Made by a program: the position numbers and the translations under genes
In this document: piece by piece, positions 3,001-32,000 of the stretch
How the letters are laid out: every line of letters starts with the position of its first letter
Position numbering within the stretch: the stretch's first letter is position 1
DNA from: Geotalea uraniireducens Rf4
Lineage (GTDB): Bacteria; Desulfobacterota; Desulfuromonadia; Geobacterales; Geobacteraceae
Direction of reading: 5' to 3'
Assembly (NCBI RefSeq): GCF_000016745.1
Contig: NC_009483.1
Location: 3,510,001 to 3,542,000 of the forward strand
DNA: 32,000 nt
The notes under the pieces: model-generated
The model's database searches: none
The model's input: the letters and a program-made list of their open reading frames with translations, nothing else
What the model was told of the DNA's origin: nothing

Positions 3001-6000
3001 TTCGACGATGGAAGGAATATTCCCTCCCGACCAGATGGGTACGCCGTCGGCCTTCAACTCCACAAGGGTGAGCTGTCTGTTGTCTGAAACATTCACCACT
3101 ATGGCCACATTGGCACCGGCCGCAGCCTCGGCAGGGCTCTGCAGAGACAGGACGGGCGACTGGCTGTCCAGCGAGACGCCGACACTGGCGCTCCCCTTGT
3201 TGCCGGCCCGGTCAGTAGCCTCTATGTTGAGGATGTTGTCGCCCTCGGCAAGTGTATAGACAACACTGAAGGTCTGATTGGTGACGGTGATGGCAGTGCC
3301 GTTGATAGTGGCGGTAGTATGGGGCTTGCTGATGATGCCGGAAACGGTTACCTGCGCTGTTTTGGTAATGGTGCCGGAAAGGGGCGCAGTGATGGTAACC
3401 ACGGGGGGTGTATTGTCGAGGGTGACGAGAACGGTTTTCGTGGCCTGATTTCCTGCAAGGTCCGTGGCAACAAGGGTGATGGTATTGAGCCCCGGTGTCA
3501 GGGTCAACGGCTGATCGAAATCGAGACTGCTCAAGGTTGCAGCCTGACCGTTGATGGTAAGGCCGGCAACCGGTTCGTCGATGTTACCTTTGACCGTAAC
3601 CTGCGGCGCACTGAAGAAGGCGTTTTCTGCCGGAACGGTGACGGTTATGACCGGCGCCCTGGTATCGAGAACGATGCCGAGGGGAACTGAGGGAATACTC
3701 TCGTTGCCTGCTGCGTCGGTGGCGATGGCAGTGTAGGAGTTTGTCCCCTCCGCCAGGGTAACGCCTGCCAGGGTGAAGCTACCCTGGGCGTCTGCGGTGA
3801 CGGTGCCGATGAGCAAACCTGCGGCAGATATTTTCACGCTTGATCCTGCTTCGGCAGTGCCGCCAAGGGTGACCCCGGCCACATTGGTCGGACTGGTGAG
3901 CGAATTGAGTACCGGAGCTTGCGGCGGCGTGGAGTCTAGCGTGACATTGACCGTTGCCGAACCGCTGTTGCCGGCCCGGTCGGTTGCTTTTACAGTAATG
4001 AAATTTGCTTCCTCGCTTAATGTATATGCGGCTGACCAGGTTTTGCCCGAGACGGTGGCAGTAATGGTGTTAACGGTAACCGTGGTGAATTCTTCACTGA
4101 CTGTTCCGGAAACGATTACCTGCTTATCCCTGGTGAGAAGTCCGGCTGCCGGTGTGACGATGGTCACCTGCGGGGGGGTGGTGTCCAGGTAAACGGGAAC
4201 AGAGGTGGTTCCCTCATTTCCGGCCAGATCCTTTGCCTTGACGACAAGCGTGTTCGCTCCCTCTGCAAGAGTTATTGTGAGACTGAACGAAAGCCCATCG
4301 ACAACGGCTGACGTATTATTCACCGTAACCGAAGTGACCGGTTCGTTGACCATACCGGTGACGGTGATCTGCGGCGTGTTGAGGAATGCATTTGCTGTCG
4401 GCGCGGTTATTATTATGACCGGCGGCGTAATGTCGAGAACAGCGCTGACCGGTGACGATGCGGAACTTTCGTTACCTGCCGCGTCGATGGCTGCAGCAGT
4501 GTATGTGTTAATCCCTTCAACAAGTGTTGCGCCCCCCAGACTGAACTTCCCTTCAGCATCGGCAGGCACTGTGCCGAAAATCACCCCGCCAGCGACCACC
4601 TTTACACTGGCATCCGCTTCGGCAGTGCCGCTGATCGTAACCGCAGCCAGGTTGGTTGGTGTGGTGAGTGGGTTGAGCAGCGGCGCGGCCGGTGGTGTGG
4701 AATCGAGGGTAACATTGACAGTGGCGCTGCCCGGGTTTCCGGTCCGGTCGGTCGCCTGAACGGTGATGCTGTTTGCACCTTCGCTCAGGGTGTAATCAAC
4801 CAGGGTCCAATCTTTTCCATTGACCTGGGCGGGAATATTGTTGACGGTAACCGCCGTTACATCTTCACTGACCGTTCCGGTCACGGTCACCTTGCTGTTT
4901 CGGGTCAGGAGTCCCGATGCCGGTGCGCTGATTGTGACAACCGGGGGCACGGTATCGGTAACGAAGCTCCAGATACGGCTGGCGACGTTGGCGGCGCGGT
5001 CGGCTACGCTGAGGCTGACAGCATGGCTGCCATCGGGCAACTTTGAGCCGGGGGCATAGGAGATGGCGGCGGCAGTTATGGACGCAGCAGCGGAGACATC
5101 GTTTCCATCCACCAAAAGCCGCACACTGGCCGTGTTGATGCCGGAGCCGTTGGTCTCGTCCGAATAGGAGGCGGAAATGACCGGCAGCGGGTTGTTGAGG
5201 AGAGCCCCGTCTGCCGGAGAAATGGCGGAGATGACCGGCGGTGTGCTGTCGCACCCCTTGCCGATGATCTCTATGATGAGAAAGGAGGGTCCCCTTTTCC
5301 GGATCTCGTCGATTTTCCGCGCCAGATCGTCCAGATGCCTGACGTTTTCATCGATGGCATGATTTATCCCTTCAAGCTCCTTAAGCAGTTCCGAGAGTTT
5401 TTCCCTCTTCTTTTCGTGATCTTTTTCTCTCTTGCTCGCTGACCGATCAAATGTGTCGAGGGCGGCCTTACAGGATCGGATGGCATCCTCTGTATCCCTT
5501 TTCGATTTTTCTATGCCCGTCCGGTCATGTTCGACCCAATCCTTTCCGATTTCGTGCCCGTTTTTCTCCCTATCCCAACCATCTTCTTTGTCATCTGCAT
5601 CGTCGTCTTCATCATCAAGGCTCTTACGTACCCCGGCCAGGTGCTCATCCCGATCGCCGTAACCTTTTTTAATGCGCTGGAATTCCAGGAGGATTCTTTC
5701 AAGCGTTTTGATGTCGTAGGGTGGTTTCAGGCCGGCAATTTCATTTTCCAGCAATTGCAGTTTGGCCAGATCCTTTTCCAGATCCGACTGCCTGGCCTGA
5801 TACTTTGCCAGCTGATCAAAATAGCCGTGGTGACCGCTTTTGAGTATCACCTTCAGCTCATTTAGCTGCTGTACGGCTACGAGTTTTTCAAAGGTCGCAA
5901 TCTTGTGTTTGAACTCGCTTTCTCCGGCAATCTTGCTGCCGTTTATGTAAATCCTTGCCGATTTGATCCGGGTATTTTTACTATCGCCGTTTTGCACCCG

Positions 6001-6275: not shown

Positions 6276-6576
6276 GCAGGAGCCATCCTATAACCACAAA
6301 GCATGCCAAAACGAAAGGCAGATGGAAACCATACAATAAACAGTTAATAACCAGCTGAATATAAACAATAATTTTTAAATTTAGTTTTCTGGAATTTCAG
6401 AGGTGAGAGAATGAATGGGAGGCGATTTTTTGTGGAGATATTGTAAAATTTTTTTACACATCGCCGTAGAAGCCCATGGGACAAGGCTTTACATTCTTGT
6501 AAAAATTTTTTACACATGTCCGTAAACCCTTGCCTGGCAAGGGTTTAGACTTATTGTAAAAAAATTTTACACTTGG
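6276..6576 (-). promoter_or_regulatory. Copy 1 of a 301-bp AT-rich upstream module with three TGT-(A/T)11-ACA palindromes and one GC palindrome
   Basis: Ungapped alignment with 17688-17988 (offset 11412). 17-bp sites at 6442-6458, 6498-6514 and 6555-6571. Palindrome AAACCCTTGCC-T-GGCAAGGGTTT at 6524-6546. Lies 50 nt 5' of the giant-protein ATG (6225). Confidence 0.6.
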
Positions 6577-10449: not shown

Positions 10450-10688
10450 CTGCTTCTTGTTCCGGTACTCCTTGGGGATATGGGACGGATCTTCTACAAA
10501 GTGGAGCGTGCCGTTTCGATCCCCCCCTGTGTCAGAATAGTTGTCGCCTCAGATGGGTTGTTTAGCCACGGTCTTCCGAGCTGAATTGCAACGAGCGTAG
10601 CGAGCTTGCGATTCAGCTCGAAAGACCGGGACCGGCAAAAGCCGGCGACCCGTATTTTTTCAACATCTGGGGGCAGCAAGGATCTATA

Positions 10689-11222
10689 ATGACATACACA
10701 CAAGGATTCAAATCCAGCCTGGTTCGCAAGATGGCCTGCCCTAATGGCGTCTCGGCCTCAGCTCTATCCCGAGAAGTGGGAATTCCCCAACAATCACTCT
10801 CTCGCTGGCTTCGAGACGCAAATGTCGTGAATGAATCTGGTAACTCCCCAATTTCTGAAGCACCATGGAGAACAATGTCCCCAAAGCGCCCACAAGACAA
10901 GTCTGCCGAAGAAAAGCTCAAAATCGTCATCGAAGCCGAGACGGTTGCCGAAGATCAACTTGGCGCCTTCCTGCGTCGCAATGGAATTCATGAAGCACAG
11001 TTACGCGAGTGGCGCGCCATGATGCTTTCGGGGCTGCAAAAACCGTCTCGGCCTTCCTCAAAAACATCAGAGGAAACTCGCAAAATTCATGCACTGGAAA
11101 AAGAATTACTGCGCAAAGATAAAGCATTGGCCGAGGCCGCCGCGATTTTGATCCTCAAAAAAAAAGTCCAATCGATCTGGGGGGGCGAGGACGAGCCCAC
11201 GGACAAGAGGAACGGCAGATGA
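10689..11222 (+). CDS. IS3-family transposase OrfA (HTH plus leucine-zipper-like region)
   Basis: 177 aa. HTH-like GVSASALSREVGIPQQSLSRWLRD. Coiled region IHALEKELLRKDKALAEAAAILILKKK ends at the slippery A-run. Confidence 0.85.
   Translation: MTYTQGFKSSLVRKMACPNGVSASALSREVGIPQQSLSRWLRDANVVNESGNSPISEAPWRTMSPKRPQDKSAEEKLKIVIEAETVAEDQLGAFLRRNGIHEAQLREWRAMMLSGLQKPSRPSSKTSEETRKIHALEKELLRKDKALAEAAAILILKKKVQSIWGGEDEPTDKRNGR
11157..11166 (+). other. Programmed -1 ribosomal frameshift site (A9G run) of the IS3-family element
   Basis: CTC AAA AAA AAA G in the orfA frame. The -1 frame (orfB frame; 11219 is 2 mod 3 versus 0 for orfA) is open across the site (..FDPQKKSPIDLGGRGRAHGQEERQM..), which would give an OrfAB fusion. 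Confidence 0.6.
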
Positions 11223-12244
11223 TCGGGCAACTTATTGAAGAGGCAACCCATTCCGGAGCGAGACTTGAATCGGCCGTTGTCGCCATCGGGCTGAGCATTC
11301 GCACGTTCCAGCGTTGGAATCTCCAGGATGACGGAGCAGATCGGCGACATGGGCCAGTCGCAGAACCGGCGAACAAGCTGGCTCCGTCGGAGCGGCAGAA
11401 CATCATCGATATTGCAAACTCCCCGGCGTTTCGGGATATTTCGCCGAAACAGATCGTGCCGCAATTGGCCGATCAGGGAATATACGTGGCGTCGGAATCG
11501 AGTTTCTACCGGGTGCTCAAAGACGATGGGCTGATGACTCACCGGGAACCCTCCCGGCCCGCCACCAGCCGCAAGCCAAAAGAACATGTGGCTACCGGTC
11601 CTTGCCAGGTCTGGTCATGGGACATCACCTACTTGAAGAGCCCGATTCTTGGGCAGTTCTTTTATCTCTACATGATCATGGATGTCTGGAGCCGCAAGAT
11701 CGTAGCGTCCACGGTGTTTTTAAAAGAATCCAATGACTATAGCGCCAGGCTGTTTCTGAAAGCCTGTATCAGGCTCGGCATCAATCCGGAAGGCCTGATT
11801 CTTCACTCCGACAACGGCGGCCCGATGAAAGGGGCGACCATGCTGGCTACTCTCCAGCGCCTGGGCGTAATTCCTTCCTTCAGCAGGCCACAGGTCAGTG
11901 ACGACAACCCTTTCTCAGAAGCGCTGTTCCGAACCATGAAATATAGACCTGGTTATCCGAGTCGGCCTTTTTCAAGTCTGGCAGCGGCCCAGACTTGGGT
12001 TGATGGTTTCGTCGCTTGGTATAACACGGAGCATCTGCACAGCGGCATTCGCTTCGTCACCCCGGACGATCGCCACTTCGGCCGGGAGAAAGCCATCCTG
12101 TTAAACCGCCGGGAGATATACGAGAAGGCCCGGCAACAAAACCCAAACCGCTGGTCAAAAAACATCCGAAACTGGGAGCCAGTGGAAACAGTTTATCTTA
12201 ACCCTGAACCAACGGCGGAAGTCGAACTTCTTGACGCCGCATAA
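11219..12244 (+). CDS. IS3-family transposase OrfB (DDE/rve integrase core)
   Basis: 341 aa. VWSWDITYL (first D), LHSDNGGPMKG (second D), VSDDNPFSEALFRTMKYRP (E region), WYNTEHLHSGIRFVTPDDRHFG tail. ATGA overlap with the orfA stop. Confidence 0.88.
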   Translation: MIGQLIEEATHSGARLESAVVAIGLSIRTFQRWNLQDDGADRRHGPVAEPANKLAPSERQNIIDIANSPAFRDISPKQIVPQLADQGIYVASESSFYRVLKDDGLMTHREPSRPATSRKPKEHVATGPCQVWSWDITYLKSPILGQFFYLYMIMDVWSRKIVASTVFLKESNDYSARLFLKACIRLGINPEGLILHSDNGGPMKGATMLATLQRLGVIPSFSRPQVSDDNPFSEALFRTMKYRPGYPSRPFSSLAAAQTWVDGFVAWYNTEHLHSGIRFVTPDDRHFGREKAILLNRREIYEKARQQNPNRWSKNIRNWEPVETVYLNPEPTAEVELLDAA

Positions 12245-12275
12245 AAATTCAACAGAGGCGACAACTACCTTGACA

Positions 12276-12892
12276 CCCGCCGCCAATGCCCGACCGCGCC
12301 CGTCCATGCTGATGGCGATGTTGTGCAAGGTGAGGACGCTGGTAAATGCATCGCTTGTGAACTGGCAGCCCTGGTCGGTGTTAAATATCTCAGGGCAACC
12401 AAACGTTCGAAGCGATTGCTCCAGGCAATCAACGCAGAACCCGCTGTCGAGTGAGTTCGATAATCGCCAGGCCAGTACCTTGCGCGAATACCAGTCGATC
12501 ACTGCAGCAAGGTACGCAAACCCGCGTGCCAGGCGGATGTAAGTGATGTCAGTACTCCAGACCTGATTTGGCCGGGACACGTTTAACCCTCTGAGCAGGT
12601 ACGGATAAACCTTGTGCTGAGGATGAGGACGGCTGGTATTTGGCCCTGGCGCCATGCCAGCCAACCCCAAGACCCCCATCAATCGCTGAACTCGCTTACG
12701 GTTGACGGGATGGCCTTTGGTGGCCAGATGCACCACCATTTTACGGCTACCGTAGAACGGGTGACAGGTATATTCAGCATCAATCAAAGCCAGCAACAGC
12801 AATTCCAATTCATCCGGTACGGCGACAAAATGGGGGGCATAAACAGTAGAACGGGCTACGCCCGCTAACTCGCATTGCCGGGTGAGCGCCAT
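12276..12892 (-). pseudogene. Truncated IS3-family transposase OrfB (lacks the segment that should carry the catalytic E)
   Basis: QVWSTDITYIRL (D), EIFNTDQGCQFTS (D), ISMDGRGRAL. After that the listed ORF 12155..12892 reads on into the terminal IR of the other IS (..AAGVKVVVASVEFL..), which is non-transposase sequence. Confidence 0.75.
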
Positions 12893-12927: not shown

Positions 12928-13221
12928 CTACTGGCCAATCCCGGACTTTTTTTTAAGCCAGTCAAGTTCCATCTTCAACCGCCCGATTTCCGAGTAGAGC
13001 CGCTCAGGGCTGGCGGAAGGATCATCGGGCTTGGGGCCGCGCTTGGAATCGAAAATTCCAGGTGCCTGTGCGATCAGGGCTTTCTTCCATTCCCCAACCT
13101 GGGTCGGATGGATAGCAAATTCCTGGGCGATTTCATTCAAGGTCTTCGTCCCTCGGATCGCTTCGAGTGCGACTTTTGCCTTGTGCTGACTGGTGAAACT
13201 TTTACGGCTCTTTTCGCTCAT
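12928..13221 (-). CDS. IS3-family transposase OrfA (HTH_Tnp_1-like)
   Basis: MSEKSRKSFTSQHKAKVALEAIRGTKTLNEIAQEFAIHPTQVGEWKK.. The internal ATG at 13221 has AAGGAG 7 nt upstream and is preferred over the ATG at 13251. It ends in LKKKSGIGQ across the slippery run. Confidence 0.8.
   Translation of the reverse strand: MSEKSRKSFTSQHKAKVALEAIRGTKTLNEIAQEFAIHPTQVGEWKKALIAQAPGIFDSKRGPKPDDPSASPERLYSEIGRLKMELDWLKKKSGIGQ
12946..12954 (-). other. Canonical IS3 A-AAA-AAG -1 frameshift motif
   Basis: Minus strand reads CTT AAA AAA AAG TCC. The orfB frame (12892) is -1 relative to orfA (13221-12892=329, which is 2 mod 3). Confidence 0.6.
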
Positions 13222-13286
13222 TGCCTGCTCCTTTTTATCGCAGGCTACCATCTTAAACTATTGTCCGAAAATTGGGGTCCACTATA

Positions 13287-14223
13287 GTTCAATAGAAGCT
13301 TTAAGCCGAAACCTTGTCCGCAGAAAGAACGGAAACTGGGGATAAAGGCGGATAAACCCTTTCATCTTTGCTTTTGCCTGATCCGCTTTGATCATCTTTT
13401 TCCGCCTGTACTGCGTTCAAATCCCAGGTTCTGTTTTATCCGCCTCTAGATGCTTTCCGCCTGATCAACTTCAGGGCGTTCAATAGAAGCTTTAAGCCGA
13501 AACCTTGTCCGCAGAAAAAACGGAAACTGGGGATAAAGGCGGATAAACCCTTTCATCTTTGCTTTTGCCTGATCCGCTTTGATCATCTTTTTCCGCCTGT
13601 ACTGCGTTCAAATCCCAGGTTCTGTTTTATCCGCCTCTAGATGCTTTCCGCCTGATCAACTTCAGGGCGTTCAATAGAAGCTTTAAGCCGAAACCTTGTC
13701 CGCAGAAAAAACGGAAACTGGGGATAAAGGCGGATAAACCCTTTCATCTTTGCTTTTGCCTGATCCGCTTTGATCATCTTTTTCCGCCTGTACTGCGTTC
13801 AAATCCCAGGTTCTGTTTTATCCGCCTCTAGATGCTTTCCGCCTGATCAACTTCAGGGCGTTCAATAGAAGCTTTAAGCCGAAACCTTGTCCGCAGAAAA
13901 AACGGAAACTGGGGATAAAGGCGGATAAACCCTTTCATCTTTGCTTTTGCCTGATCCGCTTTGATCATCTTTTTCCGCCTGTACTGCGTTCAAATCCCAG
14001 GTTCTGTTTTATCCGCCTCTAGATGCTTTCCGCCTGATCAACTTCAGGGCGTTCAATAGAAGCTTTAAGCCGAAACCTTGTCCGCAGAAAAAACGGAAAC
14101 TGGGGATAAAGGCGGATAAACCCTTTCATCTTTGCTTTTGCCTGATCCGCTTTGATCATCTTTTTCCGCCTGTACTGCGTTCAAATCCCAGGTTCTGTTT
14201 TATCCGCCTCTAGATGCTTTCCG
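13287..14223. repeat. Tandem array of a 191-bp unit, 4.9 copies, near-identical
   Basis: Unit starts (GTTCAATAGAAGC) at 13287, 13478, 13669, 13860 and 14051, exactly 191 apart. The last copy stops at 14223. The only difference I can see is G at 13327 in copy 1 versus A in the others. No ORF of 60 aa or more in any frame; 191 is not a multiple of 3. Confidence 0.95.
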
Positions 14224-14622
14224 TCTATTATCAAAGGATCTACGTCTAACCTGCGGCTGCGGACCAAAGTTCAGCAGTAGACCAACCTCAATTTCCGTTG
14301 CTCTGAGATAATTGAACAACTGCGATTCATGCTCCGGGGCAAGTTGTTTTACGGCCTTGACTTCTACAATGACTTTCCCCTCGACGAGAATGTCGGCAAA
14401 ATAGTCACCAACCGGATTTTCTCCGTAATAGACCGTAATCGGCCATTGAGCGGTTGCTGTAATCTGTCTCTTTGCCAGCTCCAACAGGAGTGCATTCTCA
14501 TACACCTTTTCCAGAAAGCCGAATCCAAGCGTGTTGTAGACAGTGTAGAAACAGCAGATAATGGCATCAGTCAATTCCCGATGCTTGTAGATGTCTTCGT
14601 CATTACACCCCCTGTCCGTCAT
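14200..14622 (-). CDS. GxxExxY-family protein (PD-(D/E)XK nuclease-like fold)
   Basis: 140 aa. Family-typical layout: LTDAIICCFYTVYNTLGFGFLEKVYENALLLEL, VGDYFADILVEGKVIVEVKAV, HESQLFNYLRATEIEVGLLLNFG. The last 7 codons plus the stop lie inside the 191-bp repeat. Confidence 0.75.
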   Translation of the reverse strand: MTDRGCNDEDIYKHRELTDAIICCFYTVYNTLGFGFLEKVYENALLLELAKRQITATAQWPITVYYGENPVGDYFADILVEGKVIVEVKAVKQLAPEHESQLFNYLRATEIEVGLLLNFGPQPQVRRRSFDNRRKASRGG

Positions 14623-14636
14623 GGCCCCCCGCCCCC

Positions 14637-14686
14637 CTATTCTGCCCTATTCTGCCCTATTCTGCCCTGTTCTGCCCTATTCTGCC
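14637..14686. repeat. 10-bp tandem repeat CTATTCTGCC x5 (fourth copy CTGTTCTGCC)
   Basis: Read directly. It begins 15 nt upstream of the GxxExxY ATG (14622). On the coding strand it reads GGCAGAATAG x5. Confidence 0.95.
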
Positions 14687-14831
14687 CAATAGCAAAATGC
14701 CTGCGTGTCGGACCCACACATTTCACTTGCCGATTCCCGAGGAGTTCCGGGACGGAGTTCCGGGGACGCCATACTTATTCACCGATAATGATTGGCATGG
14801 CGTCTCCGAAATTCCCCGAATGCTCCGTTCG

Positions 14832-17687: not shown

Positions 17688-17988
17688 GCAGGAGCCATTC
17701 TATAACCACATTGCATGCCAAAGCGGAAGGCAGATTGAAATTATTCAATAAACTATCAATAACCAGCTGAATATAAACAATACTTTTAAATTTGGCGTTC
17801 CGGAGGTTCGGGGGTGAGGGTTTTGGGTAGGGGAGATTCCTTGCCGCACTTATTGTAAAAAATTTTTACACATCGGCGTAGAAGCCCATGGGACAAGGGT
17901 TTACATTCTTGTAAAAAATTTTTACACATACCTGTAAACCCTTGTCTGGCGAGGGTTTAGACTTATTGTAAAAAAATTTTACACTTGG
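17688..17988 (-). promoter_or_regulatory. Copy 2 of the 301-bp AT-rich upstream module
   Basis: Ungapped alignment with 6276-6576. TGT-(A/T)11-ACA sites at 17854-17870, 17910-17926 and 17967-17983. GC palindrome at 17936-17958. Lies 11 nt 5' of the 17676 ATG. Confidence 0.6.
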
Positions 17989-17999
17989 AAGCAGTAATG

Positions 18000-18061
18000 T
18001 CACCCTCCCCCAACCCCTCCCATCAAGGGAGGGGAGCGGAGCTTTAAAGTCCCCTCGCCCC
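18000..18061. repeat. REP-like element, type A (C-tract/G-tract hairpin, CCCTCCC-N5/6-GGGAGGG)
   Basis: TCACCCTCCCCCAACCCCTCCCATCAAGGGAGGGGAG.. is almost identical to the left arm of 29031-29114. Confidence 0.85.
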
Positions 18062-18113
18062 ATGCGGACCCAAATTGCGGGCCTAAAGGACTTGGTAATT
18101 ATCAATATACCAC

Positions 18114-23703: not shown

Positions 23704-23829
23704 GTAGGGGCGGGGTCTCCCCGCCCACTCCCCGCCCACTCCCCGCCCACTCCCCGCCCACTCCCCGCCCACTCCCCGCCCACTCCCCGCCCAGCAACCC
23801 CGCCCGGGGCACGGCAACCGTGCCCCTAC
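23704..23829. repeat. REP-like element, type B, expanded by an internal microsatellite
   Basis: Ends GTAGGGGC ... GCCCCTAC. It overlaps the stop codon (23826-23828) of the Fe-S oxidoreductase gene. Confidence 0.85.
23719..23794. repeat. 11-bp microsatellite CCCCGCCCACT x6 plus a partial seventh unit
   Basis: Units start at 23719, 23730, 23741, 23752, 23763 and 23774. The partial unit CCCCGCCCAG starts at 23785. Confidence 0.95.
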
Positions 23830-28009: not shown

Positions 28010-28119
28010 CCCCCCTCCCTTCGATGGGAGGGGGCTAGGGGGAGGGTGAAAATAAATATCGAAGAATCACTGTTTTGCACCCCCACCCCATCCCTCCCCC
28101 ATCGAAGGGGGAGGGGGAA
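28010..28119. repeat. REP-like element, type A (two CCCTCCC-N6-GGGAGGG hairpins)
   Basis: CCCCTCCCTTCGATGGGAGGGG and CCCTCCCCCATCGAAGGGGGAGGG, with GGGGGAGGGTG / CACCCCCACCCC arms. Confidence 0.85.
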
Positions 28120-29030: not shown

Positions 29031-29114
29031 TCACCCTCCCCCACCCCCTCCCATCAAGGGAGGGGAGCTTTTAAATCCCCTCGCCCCTTGTGGGAGAGGG
29101 CTAGGGTGAGGGGG
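29031..29114. repeat. REP-like element, type A (full palindromic copy)
   Basis: TCACCCTCCCCCACCCCCTCCCATCAAGGGAGGGGAG ... CCCCTCGCCCCTTGTGGGAGAGGGCTAGGGTGAGGGGG. It ends 3 nt from the thiolase stop. Confidence 0.85.
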
Positions 29115-29117
29115 AAG

Positions 29118-30293
29118 TTAAACCCTTTCGAATATGACCGCCACCGCCTCTCCGCCGCCGATGCAGAGGGTGGCCAGACCGTAGCGTGACTGCCGCCTGT
29201 GCAGTTCGCGAATGACCGTGGCCGCAAGCCTGGCGCCGCTGGCGCCGATGGGGTGGCCGATGGCGCAGGCGCCGCCGTTGACGTTGACTTTCGCCGGGTC
29301 GAGACCCAGTTGCTTTATGGCAATCATGGTCACCGCGGCAAACGCCTCGTTGATCTCGAACAGGTCGATGTCGGCAACCTTGAGCCCGGCCCTGGCGCAG
29401 GCCGCCTGGATCGCCCCCACCGGGGCGTCGGTGTACAGTTCGGGATGCATGCTGTAGGTGGCATAGGCGACCAGCCGCGCCCGCGGCTTCAGGTTGTGTT
29501 TTTTCAGGGCGCCTTCGTCGGCCAGAAGCGTCACGGCCGCGCCGTCGCTGATGCTGGAAGCGTTGCCGGCGGTGATGGCGCCGTCTTTTTTGAATGCCGG
29601 CCGCAGCTGGGTGAGCTTGGCGAAGTCCACCTTGAACGGGTCCTCGTCGTCCGCCACAACCTCATCCCCCTTCTTGCCGTTTTTCACCACCGGGACGATC
29701 TCGTCCTTGAACACACCGCCCTTCACCGCCTCCTGGGCCAGTCGGTACGAACGGACCGCGAACTCATCCTGCTCCTCCCGGGAAAAACCATGCTTCGCCA
29801 CGGCCGCCTCGGCGATATCGCCCATATGCTTCCCCGAGTACGGGTCCTGCAAGCCGTCATAAATCATCAGGTCCAGAAGCTCGCCGTGCCCCATCCGGTA
29901 GCCGTAGCGGGCCTTCTTCAGGATGAAGGGGGTGAGCGACATATTTTCCATGCCGCCAGCCACAACCAGGTTCGAATCGCCGAGCATGATGGAACCGGCG
30001 CCGAGCATGATCGACTTGAGGCCGCTGCCGCAGACCTTGTTGATGGTCATGGCGTGAACGCCGTCAGGGATTCCCGCCAGCCGCATTGCCTGGCGTGCCG
30101 GCGCTTGGCCCGCCCCGCCGGATAATACCTGACCAAGGATTACTTCGCTGACTGCCGCCGGGTCAAGACCGGTCCGTTCCAGCGCGGCACCGATGACCGT
30201 TGCCGCCAGCTTCGGCGCTTCCACGTCCGACAGCACGCCGCCAAAAGAACCGAATGGAGTTCTCAGGGATTCAACCACAAACACGTCTTTCAT
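29118..30293 (-). CDS. Acetyl-CoA C-acetyltransferase (thiolase II)
   Basis: The ATG at 30293 (GGAGGT SD) gives MKDVFVVESLRTPFGSFGG.. Also INKVCGSGLKSI (active-site Cys), NVNGGACAIGHPIGASGAR and GLATLCIGGGEAVA. Confidence 0.92.
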   Translation of the reverse strand: MKDVFVVESLRTPFGSFGGVLSDVEAPKLAATVIGAALERTGLDPAAVSEVILGQVLSGGAGQAPARQAMRLAGIPDGVHAMTINKVCGSGLKSIMLGAGSIMLGDSNLVVAGGMENMSLTPFILKKARYGYRMGHGELLDLMIYDGLQDPYSGKHMGDIAEAAVAKHGFSREEQDEFAVRSYRLAQEAVKGGVFKDEIVPVVKNGKKGDEVVADDEDPFKVDFAKLTQLRPAFKKDGAITAGNASSISDGAAVTLLADEGALKKHNLKPRARLVAYATYSMHPELYTDAPVGAIQAACARAGLKVADIDLFEINEAFAAVTMIAIKQLGLDPAKVNVNGGACAIGHPIGASGARLAATVIRELHRRQSRYGLATLCIGGGEAVAVIFERV

Positions 30294-30312
30294 CGCCAAC
30301 CTCCACAAGCCG

Positions 30313-30361
30313 AAATTTGATTCAAGTATAAGAGCAGTTTACGTGCATGTCAATCAAATTT
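30313..30361. promoter_or_regulatory. 12-bp inverted repeat bracketing the promoter (candidate repressor operator)
   Basis: AAATTTGATTCA (30313-30324) and TCAATCAAATTT (30350-30361), 11/12 complementary. One arm overlaps the -35 and the other covers the TSS region. Confidence 0.5.
30325..30353 (-). promoter_or_regulatory. Sigma70-type promoter of the beta-oxidation operon
   Basis: Minus strand reads TTGACA (30353-30348), a 17-nt spacer, then TATACT (30330-30325). The predicted TSS near 30318 leaves a ~25-nt leader containing the GGAGG SD. Confidence 0.6.
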
Positions 30362-30549
30362 AAAACATGTTTCTACAATATGATAAATTTTTCTTTGCTA
30401 CGCGCACAACCCCCTTGCCTACAGGCGCTTTACTGAAAGTAAAAATGTTTGTATTGTATTTGCTTTCCAAACCCACGCACGTCTCGCGATAATTTGACGT
30501 AAAGGGAATGCACGTACAAACGACTTCCATCACCAGTGCAATACTACCA

Positions 30550-30633
30550 GAAAATACGAAAGGGGCATGTTGCCCGTCACACCTGACCGGACAACATGCC
30601 CCTTCGAAAACTCCCTTTTACTTTTTTTCAATC
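30550..30633. repeat. Copy A of an 84-bp (or longer) direct repeat with a 13-bp-stem hairpin
   Basis: GAAAATACGAAAGGGGCATGTTGCCCGTCACACCTGACCGGACAACATGCCCCTTCGAAAACTCCCTTTTACTTTTTTTCAATC. Stem AAGGGGCATGTTG / CAACATGCCCCTT with a 19-nt loop. Confidence 0.9.
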
Positions 30634-30752
30634 GTGCGCTGCCTGCCAGGTTTTAGGAAAAAAATGGGGAAATTTTTTAATGCTGTGGAGGCAGGAGTCT
30701 TGGATCATGTTTAGACGTTAAAAGAATTTGCAAGTTATTTACGAACTTTAGG

Positions 30753-30782
30753 TTGACAAATAATCACAATATGGTTTACAAA
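30753..30782 (+). promoter_or_regulatory. Candidate sigma70 promoter for the islet gene
   Basis: TTGACA (30753-30758), an 18-nt spacer, then TACAAA (30777-30782). A second possibility is TTTACA-N18-TACAAT just downstream. Very AT-rich context, so specificity is low. Confidence 0.35.
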
Positions 30783-30823
30783 TAATATATAAAATGTTTA
30801 CAATAATTTAAACGAGGTCGATC

Positions 30824-31864
30824 ATGGATATAAAAGATTTCATTTTGGAAGCCATTTACCAAAATAAAACAGGGCACCTTTCGCAGACAATAGCCGAAAA
30901 ATTCAATATCACCCGGCAAGCAGCACAAAAACATATCAAACAACTTGTCGATGCTGGCATTCTTATTATGACTGGTTCTACAAAATCAGCAAAATATGAG
31001 TTTGTCAAAATTGTAAGTGAGCAGAAACGTTTTGATTTATCTCCAGGAATAACTGAAGATTTTCCATGGCGTACATTTGTCAGGCCGCTGCTGGACAATT
31101 TGCCGGGAAATATTATATCAATTTGTCAGTATGGTTTTACCGAGATGTTTAATAATGCCATTGACCATTCCGGAGGTAGTAGCGTTCTGGTGTCTGTTGA
31201 GAGAACAGCATACAATATAGAGTTAGTGGTAAGTGATGACGGTATTGGCATTTTCCGTAAAATAACTAATGATTTCAAGCTTGATGATGAATTACATGCA
31301 ATACTCGAACTTTCGAAAGGGAAATTAACCTCAGACCCTTCTCGTCACAGTGGAGAAGGTATCTTTTTTACCAGCAGGATGTTTGACCGCTATAACATAA
31401 TATCTGGGAAACTACATTTTTCGCATACATTAACAAATACAGATTGGTTGCATGAAGGGAACAACCCGCACACAGGGACAGGCGTTATTATGGATATAAG
31501 AATTTCTAGTGAACGAACAACACGGGCGATTTTCAACGAATTTGCAACTGTTGACCATCCCGGTTTTTATAAAACCATTGTTCCGGTATACCTAGCCCAG
31601 TACGGGGATGAGAATATGATTTCCCGTTCTCAGGCAAAACGAGTTCTGGCGCGTGTGGAGAAGTTTAGAGAGGTTGTCCTTGATTTTGAAAGGGTAAAAG
31701 AAATCGGGCAAGCTTTTGCCGATGAAATTTTCAGAGTTTTTAGACTGGCAAATCCTCACGTACATCTTATTCCAGTTAATGCAAATGAGTCCGTTCAATG
31801 GATGATTGACCGCGCCATCGCTTCCAGTGATGCGGAAGTTAATCAACTTAGTGTTAAAGATTGA
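30824..31864 (+). CDS. wHTH / GHKL (SpoIIAB-like) ATPase / STAS-like (DUF4325-type) fusion protein
   Basis: 346 aa. GAGG 7 nt upstream of the ATG. N-terminal HTH LSQTIAEKFNITRQAAQKHIKQLVDAGIL. GHKL N-box FTEMFNNAIDHS, G1 VSDDGIGIF, G2 HSGEGIFFTS. C-terminal ISRSQAKRVLARVEKFREVVLDFERVKEIGQAFADEIFRVF, typical of STAS-like DUF4325. GC content is clearly lower than in the rest of the window. Confidence 0.8.
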   Translation: MDIKDFILEAIYQNKTGHLSQTIAEKFNITRQAAQKHIKQLVDAGILIMTGSTKSAKYEFVKIVSEQKRFDLSPGITEDFPWRTFVRPLLDNLPGNIISICQYGFTEMFNNAIDHSGGSSVLVSVERTAYNIELVVSDDGIGIFRKITNDFKLDDELHAILELSKGKLTSDPSRHSGEGIFFTSRMFDRYNIISGKLHFSHTLTNTDWLHEGNNPHTGTGVIMDIRISSERTTRAIFNEFATVDHPGFYKTIVPVYLAQYGDENMISRSQAKRVLARVEKFREVVLDFERVKEIGQAFADEIFRVFRLANPHVHLIPVNANESVQWMIDRAIASSDAEVNQLSVKD

Positions 31865-31916
31865 TTCAACGCATTCCAAACCGAGACACTTCCTATTTTT
31901 TAAAGGAGGTGAGTTG

Positions 31917-32000
31917 GAAAATACGAAAGGGGCATGCTGCCCGTCACACTTGACCGGACAACATGCCCCTTCGAAAACTGCCTTTTGCTTTTTTTCAATC
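31917..32000. repeat. Copy B of the 84-bp direct repeat (cut by the window end)
   Basis: Same sequence as 30550-30633 with 4 substitutions, period 1367 bp. The window ends at the last aligned base, so the true repeat length is unknown. Confidence 0.9.

Follow-up and report, generated by a model that had tools for sequence, protein, structure and literature searches.

Insertion of foreign DNA can leave host sequence on both sides of the insert; transposon duplications span 2–15 bp and CRISPR repeats 23–50 bp. Decayed integrative elements that keep attL and attR fall under the concept of the cis-mobilizable element (CIME), described in PMC5704250. Among regulatory systems built from a kinase and its partner, CapK/CapS is encoded by a neighbouring gene pair (HTH-STAS-GHKL and STAS-wHTH) that precedes an immune operon; its DNA-damage-activated GHKL kinase phosphorylates the repressor that combines STAS and winged helix-turn-helix (wHTH) domains (PMC13373217). 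Here we analyse an AT-rich islet in Geotalea uraniireducens Rf4 in which one gene, encoding a wHTH-kinase-STAS protein, is enclosed by two long direct repeats. The window is the whole stretch of 32,000 nt that was analysed (contig NC_009483.1, positions 3,510,001 to 3,542,000, forward strand), and coordinates below refer to it. We conclude with high confidence that a single foreign gene was inserted here, that the repeats are a duplicated terminator region of the resident gene for a methyl-accepting chemotaxis protein (MCP), and that there is no array of such units. The locus is a well-resolved example of a repeat-flanked genomic islet, a known kind of feature, and represents one idiosyncratic event.

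Alignment and the list of open reading frames (ORFs) bore out the repeat pair as given in the preliminary description: an 84-nt sequence at 30550–30633 recurs at 31917–32000 with 4 substitutions (95% identity) and a period of 1,367 nt, and encloses one plus-strand gene. We call the copy on the thiolase side A and the copy on the MCP side B. A 2,475-nt Logan contig that carries the islet protein (L001) is identical to the window from 30024 to 32000 and continues 475 nt further to the right. With this contig the contiguous repeat grows to 96 nt with 5 substitutions (30550–30645 versus 31917–32012); the 12-nt extension past the window edge was equalled in score by 22 of 2,000 shuffles. The full duplication probably reaches 30672 in copy A (123 nt) and ~32030 in copy B (114 nt), the two differing by a 9-nt indel. 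A possible leftward extension, a 22-nt match of 77% between 30462–30483 and 31871–31892, was matched in 121 of 2,000 shuffles and was treated as chance. The 45-nt hairpin core occurs only twice in the window, against none expected in shuffles. Base composition sets the region apart, with a GC content of 0.376–0.43 across 30501–32000 and mostly 0.55–0.65 elsewhere in the window (genome ~58–60% GC); third-position GC is 0.34 in the islet gene (39% GC overall) and 0.80 in the neighbouring thiolase gene. AT-rich DNA had been described from about 30300 onwards, and the drop itself is real, but 30300–30549 is the native promoter region of the thiolase gene and lies outside the islet.

Where further repeat–gene units had been considered possible past copy B, L001 instead runs into a GC-rich gene on the minus strand, entering it from the 3′ end; the part present encodes the C-terminus of an MCP. 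Its stop codon falls at window-equivalent ~32051–32053, ~20–38 nt past copy B. The stem AAGGGGCATGTTG/CAACATGCCCCTT is present in both copies, as reported, but the 13-bp stem with a 19-nt loop extends on folding to ~20 bp with a 4-nt loop. A terminator scan matched the consensus in both copies, on the minus strand only. Predicted folds of the 96-mers were more stable on that strand (−38.4 versus −32.6 kcal/mol on the plus strand for copy A; −39.6 versus −29.2 kcal/mol for copy B), with z-scores of −5 to −6 (about −5 for copy A). In the source strain and in all relatives examined, the hairpin directly follows the MCP stop codon. On the strength of the minus-strand scan matches, the more stable minus-strand folds and the MCP 3′ end just past copy B, we take the repeat to be the MCP gene's own 3′ untranslated region (3′UTR) and intrinsic terminator, with termination predicted; copy B is the predicted working terminator, at exactly the position expected for one. 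Seen from the plus strand, the A-rich tract before the stem becomes a U-rich tract at a greater distance from it, which could make the hairpin a terminator for either direction. The repeat matched no RNA family in Rfam, at the gathering threshold or at E ≤ 1, and no tRNA or tmRNA target was found at the locus.

Relatives reached through a thiolase homology search show the site before insertion. Thiolase homologues are 96–98% identical on metagenomic contigs and 77–82% identical in the named relatives Citrifermentans and Geomonas. Six of the metagenomic contigs, representing four distinct sequence types (L009, L010/L011, L012/L013 and L025) with thiolases 97–98% identical to that of the window, carry the MCP gene, a spacer of 337–389 nt, and the genes for thiolase, 3-hydroxyacyl-CoA dehydrogenase and enoyl-CoA hydratase in the order seen in the window. 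Alignment of these MCP–thiolase spacers revealed exactly one copy of the repeat and no islet in each; no further copies were found in the relatives' 13-kb flanks. Empty sites with a single repeat copy show this to be an insertion with a long target duplication, and the presence/absence comparison that the preliminary description had proposed thus upholds horizontal acquisition. Across the adjoining intergenic region L012 matches the source best (94.6% identity), while the relatives are 82–87% identical to each other, which makes a single gain on the source branch the simplest history.

The relatives also give polarity to the differences between the copies. At the four variable positions of the core, copy B agrees with all relatives and all four changes are private to copy A; copy B has one private change of its own in the 12-nt extension (CGAACG, where relatives have CGCACG). 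The T-to-C difference noted in the 5′ arm of copy B is real and gives a G–U pair only in minus-strand RNA. All relatives carry this copy-B state, so the wobble is ancestral and the perfect A–U pair, created by one of the private changes, is derived in copy A. The pattern would fit copy B being constrained as a working terminator while copy A drifts, or one copy having diverged before insertion; five markers cannot separate these. A hybrid-att arrangement, in which the left part of copy A and the right part of copy B would resemble the relatives, was also considered and set aside as not decisive, with one clear left marker remaining after L025 was added.

We delimited the foreign DNA by comparison with the closest homologue loci (L014, at 94% amino-acid identity, and L015, L004, L007, L019 and L020). 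The conserved module spans ~30679–31867 (1.19 kb), and the insert including the 49-nt filler measures ~1.24 kb. On the right, similarity stops 3–5 nt past the stop codon in all compared loci; on the left, similarity to L014 begins at ~30679–30683, and only six T residues separate the module from the probable end of copy A (30672). No long inverted repeats were found at the module ends. The filler had no match in homologue loci or viral contigs and no significant similarity to the native spacer (121 of 2,000 shuffles). The module opens with a relic of an IS1-family transposase; the longer relic peptide of L004 matched annotated IS1-family transposases at E = 2e-23 (tblastn). In L004, the IS1 relic and the P0003 homologue are preceded by a short ORF start, MENPRLLDLLRTAIRIRHYSYRTRKT (5461–5540), that may resemble the N-terminal SAM-like domain of integron/XerD-type integrases; if this is real, the P0003 homologue there sits beside a decayed recombinase. 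The GGTTKACAAATAAT repeats at the islet promoter, together with an inverted partner (TTGYAAAC) upstream in the homologues, are kept in all seven homologue loci; the islet protein probably uses them as the operator to which its wHTH domain binds.

Taking all of this together, we lean towards a foreign insertion with in situ duplication of the MCP terminator region that did not depend on a recombinase. A foreign piece of ~1.24 kb would have entered a Geobacteraceae chromosome directly after the U-tract of the intrinsic terminator of the minus-strand MCP gene, and the MCP 3′UTR and terminator would have been duplicated over 96–123 nt, starting ~20–38 nt past the MCP stop codon and including the whole U-tract. 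The direct repeats would then be a long target duplication of host sequence rather than att or attC sites borne by an element or members of a dispersed repeat. Joining would have been illegitimate, through repair of a staggered break or through template switching of replication at the strong hairpin, and fill-in could yield both the duplication and filler DNA at one junction. We favour recombinase-independent insertion because filler is present at one junction, element machinery is absent, the seven other insertions of the family lack repeats and the duplicated unit is a resident 3′UTR. None of these seven homologue loci (L004, L006, L007, L008, L014 and L015 among them) has flanking repeats or shows the same scar. 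No recombinase gene or relic was found in the islet, whose sole ORF is the wHTH-GHKL-STAS gene, or in the flanks examined. The mechanism of joining is itself only a tentative choice, modestly preferred over the single-crossover integration considered below.

Several points weigh against recombinase-independent insertion. A target duplication of 96–123 nt greatly exceeds the lengths known for transposases, and few cases of recombinase-independent insertion with such a duplication have been documented in bacteria. The copies differ from each other by 5.2% (5 of 96 positions, plus the indel), close to the 5.4% that separates the whole intergenic regions of the source and L012; from this divergence, a duplication in situ would be nearly as old as the split between the source and L012, or copy A had diverged beforehand, which would favour integration by crossover. 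Finally, the module ends coincide within a few nucleotides in the source and L014, which are different loci with genes at dS = 0.28; random illegitimate joining would explain this less readily than movement as a discrete unit, at which the coincidence hints. These shared ends fit neither recombinase-independent joining nor Campbell-type integration well.

As a likely consequence of the insertion, copy B would keep terminating the MCP gene, and copy A, between the islet and the thiolase promoter, would shield that promoter from islet transcription. Were the hairpins bidirectional, copy B would also end the islet mRNA and block antisense transcription into the MCP gene, so that the pair would insulate the islet from the flanking operons and vice versa.

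The strongest competitor, which we consider possible although unlikely, is Campbell-type integration of a 1,367-nt circle (module, filler and one copy of the MCP terminator) by a single crossover, either RecA-dependent over ~100 nt of homology or catalysed by a site-specific recombinase acting in trans. A recombinase acting in trans would make the islet what is left of an integrative element after decay, with attL and attR kept, a CIME-like remnant. The arrangement of repeat, gene and repeat with ~100-nt repeats has the form of attL/attR or of a single-crossover product, and the empty sites hold exactly one copy. The copy divergence of ~5%, with four core differences private to A and one extension difference private to B, would suit an incoming copy that had already diverged, but the spread of the five differences also fits independent mutation (our rough estimate gives a chance of ~0.3 for a single-switch pattern). 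The circle would need to have captured a lineage-specific terminator beforehand, which merely pushes back the origin of the duplication, and no relative carries the islet. The preliminary description had called the repeats att-like. In form this holds, with direct repeats at both ends and a one-copy empty site in relatives; the duplicated sequence is nevertheless resident, other insertions of the family lack repeats, and neither a recombinase (no integrase or relic in the islet or its syntenic flanks) nor a cognate element or site was found. A near-exact hairpin that could serve as attP was absent from the genomes, metagenomes and viral contigs scanned. These scans (GTDB species representatives, JGI metagenomes and IMG/VR) hit only Desulfovibrio sp. 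MES5 and a single metagenome contig, in each case an unrelated terminator that shares the 13-nt stem, and no viral sequence; they exclude close copies only, since a near-exact stem was needed and the variant stem of L012 was missed.

Further from the evidence, and in our judgement improbable, the 1.19-kb unit of IS1-relic leader, autoregulated promoter and gene to its stop codon would be mobile as a discrete unit although it lacks a recombinase, its movement being driven in trans or by some host pathway directed at strong terminator hairpins. Integration of such a unit could duplicate ~100 nt of target, and its cargo would be a self-contained CapK/CapS-like sensor in a single polypeptide, selected wherever it lands. 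Less probable still is an ancestral islet lost from the relatives by recombination between the repeats, the empty sites being deletion scars: direct repeats of ~100 nt permit a precise deletion that leaves one copy and cannot be told from an empty site, but the source groups with L012 inside the set, so at least three independent losses would be needed, and the islet would still be a foreign insertion of 39% GC with a target duplication, only an older one. We give very little weight to a dispersed terminator-like repeat (of REP or MITE type) with the gene merely lying between two members. The window does contain dispersed GC-rich palindromic intergenic elements, but relatives have one copy, the second appears only with the foreign gene, similarity between the copies runs past the hairpin over the whole MCP 3′UTR, and no more copies were found in the window or the relatives' 13-kb flanks and none near-exact in the collections; the gene is likewise absent from the relatives, so that neither the common repeat nor the shared gene named in advance as evidence against acquisition was seen.

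An integron gene cassette, with the hairpin as attC at the start or junction of an array, was suggested by an imperfect hairpin repeat flanking a single promoter-bearing gene and by the possible integrase-like ORF start upstream of the L004 homologue. What lies beyond the right edge of the window refutes it, as do the empty sites, leaving it a negligible chance: a core MCP gene rather than a cassette follows copy B, the core genes on both flanks lie on the strand opposite to the islet gene, there is no intI or other integrase nearby, the hairpin is native host sequence in islet-free relatives, its stem is nearly perfect with a terminator-type U-tract, and there are no attC R″/R′ boxes (RYYYAAC/GTTRRRY), the candidates GTTGCCC (plus strand) and GTTGTCC (minus strand) not fitting GTTRRRY. 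A transposon or insertion sequence was also excluded: there are no terminal inverted repeats and no transposase beyond the ~47-nt IS1-family relic, and the duplication is 96–123 nt.

The cargo belongs to a large family. The DUF4325 domain (PF14213) was matched at residues 270–325 with 57.2 bits, against a cut-off of 23, and HATPase_c_2 with 32 bits. An AlphaFold model built on 28 homologues reached a pLDDT of 83.5, and its best Foldseek matches in the PDB were the anti-sigma serine kinases SpoIIAB and RsbW (target-normalised TM 0.71–0.75). Invariant in the 28 homologues are the ATP-binding residues E107, N110/N111, H115 and D138-G140-G142 (the N box and the G1 box DxGxG), as well as S267 and S269 at a helix N-terminus in the STAS-like domain, which we propose as candidate phospho-acceptors. 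By the modelled Bergerat ATP-binding fold, the protein fits the definition of an anti-sigma-factor-type GHKL serine kinase (SpoIIAB/RsbW), with kinase activity predicted. It may act as an autoregulated partner switch in one polypeptide, in which the wHTH domain would bind the GTTTACAA repeats at its own promoter and the fused STAS-like domain would be the target of the SpoIIAB-like kinase domain.

Comparison with the L014 copy gave dN/dS = 0.11 at dS = 0.28, indicating purifying selection. At least 7,993 clusters reached E ≤ 0.001 among 8,000 candidates scored, with members in Geobacter, Desulfuromonadales, Sulfurimonas and Anaerolineales. The gene was solitary in all 8 contexts seen, with different neighbours each time, and homologues at 60–94% identity in unrelated contexts keep a GC content of 0.38–0.40 in hosts of 0.55–0.62. 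Plasmid and phage databases held no match to the islet protein, and IMG/VR held only relatives at 42–49%. PADLOC, which has no model for this protein, and PHROGs gave only wHTH-level or weak matches, and among solved structures the sequence matched only generic kinase ATP-binding domains.

Table 1. Features of the islet and of its thiolase-side flank (window coordinates).
Feature	Position	Strand	Evidence or remark
Thiolase gene, first of a fatty-acid beta-oxidation-type operon (core flank)	29118..30293	-	Pfam Thiolase_N/C; relatives share gene order
Native thiolase promoter/leader, AT-rich resident DNA	30294..30549	-	Aligns over full length with empty-site contigs, 87–95% identity
Repeat copy A (thiolase side)	30550..30645, probably to 30672 with 9-nt insertion	-	Displaced duplicate of MCP 3′UTR and predicted terminator; 4 private substitutions in 84-nt core
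Hairpin of copy A	30560..30604	-	~20-bp stem, then UUUCGUAUUUUC on minus strand; A-rich tract before stem; bidirectional-terminator shape
IS1-family transposase 3′-end relic, degenerate, ~45–47 nt (AVEAGVLDHV*TLKEF)	30679..30722	+	Aligns with longer relics upstream of homologues in L004/L007/L014
Promoter and operator-like array	30751..30807	+	Three GGTTKACAAATAAT repeats at 22–23-nt spacing, overlapping TTTACA-18-TACAAT; TRF, promoter scan
Islet gene, 346 aa, only intact ORF between the copies	30824..31864	+	Pfam wHTH (HTH_11), HATPase_c_2, DUF4325 STAS-like
Junction filler, 49 nt	31868..31916	.	Between end of conserved module and copy B
Repeat copy B (MCP side)	31917..32000, cut by window edge; contiguous to 32012 or ~32030	-	Matches relatives at all 4 variable core positions
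Hairpin of copy B	31927..31971	-	Ancestral G–U wobble in minus-strand RNA

To the left of the islet, 8.5 kb form a core operon that is syntenic with relatives. A promoter scan upstream of the thiolase gene identified TTGACA-17-TATACT at 30353–30325, and a perfect palindrome, AAACATGTTT, lies at 30363–30372. Within this region near-invariant blocks are shared by the window, L009–L013 and L025, such as TGGTAGTATTGCACTGGTGATGGAAGTCG just after the terminator, while the surrounding spacer has diverged by 5–18%; AAACATGTTT is another such block, and they probably serve the beta-oxidation operon as operators or leader elements. The operon also contains dispersed GC-rich palindromic intergenic elements (18000–18067, 28010–28116 and 29031–29122) that consist of CCCCTCCC-ATCAAG-GGAGGGG and flanks, with copies up to 97% identical. 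The spacer between the thiolase and dehydrogenase genes varies from 204 to 411 nt among relatives, which suggests that such REP-like elements come and go.

Elsewhere in the window we observed an IS3-family element within 10529–12892, with HTH_Tnp_1 and rve ORFs and 34-nt inverted repeats at 10529–10562 and 12243–12276. A second rve-type transposase ORF lies on the minus strand at 12155–12892; both are 18 kb from the islet, with no evident link to it. A non-coding tandem array at 13287–14223 (4.9 copies of a 191-nt unit, 99–100% identical, GC ~0.46, rich in GGCGGATAAA/TTATCCGCC) adjoins an IS3-type orfA on the minus strand (12928–13251). Shorter arrays comprise a 10-nt repeat, CCCTATTCTG, in 5.3 copies at 14635–14687, directly upstream of the minus-strand ORF 14200–14622, and a perfect 11-nt repeat, CTCCCCGCCCA, in seven copies at 23717–23793, between an ETF-type gene and a CCG/4Fe-4S (HdrD-like) gene. 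Two AT-rich stretches of ~300 nt (6276–6576 and 17688–17988) share 86–93% identity and have the same orientation, at a spacing of 11,412 nt. The palindrome TTGTAAAAA(W)TTTTTACA occurs in both, and a 56-nt tandem repeat lies within the first; the pair might represent paralogous promoters or mark the edges of a larger unit.

The islet is an unusually clean single-gene acquisition, in that single-nucleotide resolution is available for the insertion point, the site before insertion, the exact extent of foreign DNA and the host sequence that was duplicated. Our interest in it is moderate and lies in an unusually long, terminator-sized duplication without a recombinase and in a wHTH-kinase-STAS gene that is uncharacterised and travels widely. 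Should a regular mechanism lie behind the long duplication, with break repair or template switching at terminator hairpins, or mobilisation in trans, as candidates, genes without recombinases would have a route into genomes with a terminator on both sides.

Among described systems, integron cassettes share with the islet a single gene and an imperfect hairpin; here the hairpin is the resident terminator, without attC boxes, array or intI. As with the target-site duplications of transposons and the repeat duplication of CRISPR arrays, host sequence lies on both sides of the insert, whereas the islet has 96–123 nt of it, no terminal inverted repeats, no transposase and 49 nt of filler at one junction. 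CIMEs (PMC5704250) are alike in foreign, compositionally deviant DNA, direct repeats of ~100 nt, with the target's 3′ end restored by one repeat, and one-copy empty sites. They differ in that the islet has no integrase or relic of one, its target is the 3′UTR and terminator of a protein gene rather than a tRNA, a tmRNA or a conserved gene end, no cognate element with its site was present in the collections searched, and its cargo is one 1-kb gene. The protein is built from the same kinds of domain (HTH or wHTH, an anti-sigma-type GHKL kinase fold and a STAS-type domain) as CapK/CapS and as the SpoIIAB–SpoIIAA and RsbW–RsbV pairs, and like CapS it has operator-like repeats at its own promoter. 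In contrast to CapK/CapS, its closest characterised analogue, the islet protein combines all three domains in a single chain (wHTH-GHKL-STAS-like), and its gene stands alone at each locus seen and does not precede an immune operon. Domain order, gene number and genomic context therefore make CapK/CapS an analogy rather than a case of family membership. The family is uncharacterised, very large and AT-rich even where its hosts are GC-rich; with its two-gene analogue CapK/CapS now characterised, functional study of the family would be reasonable.

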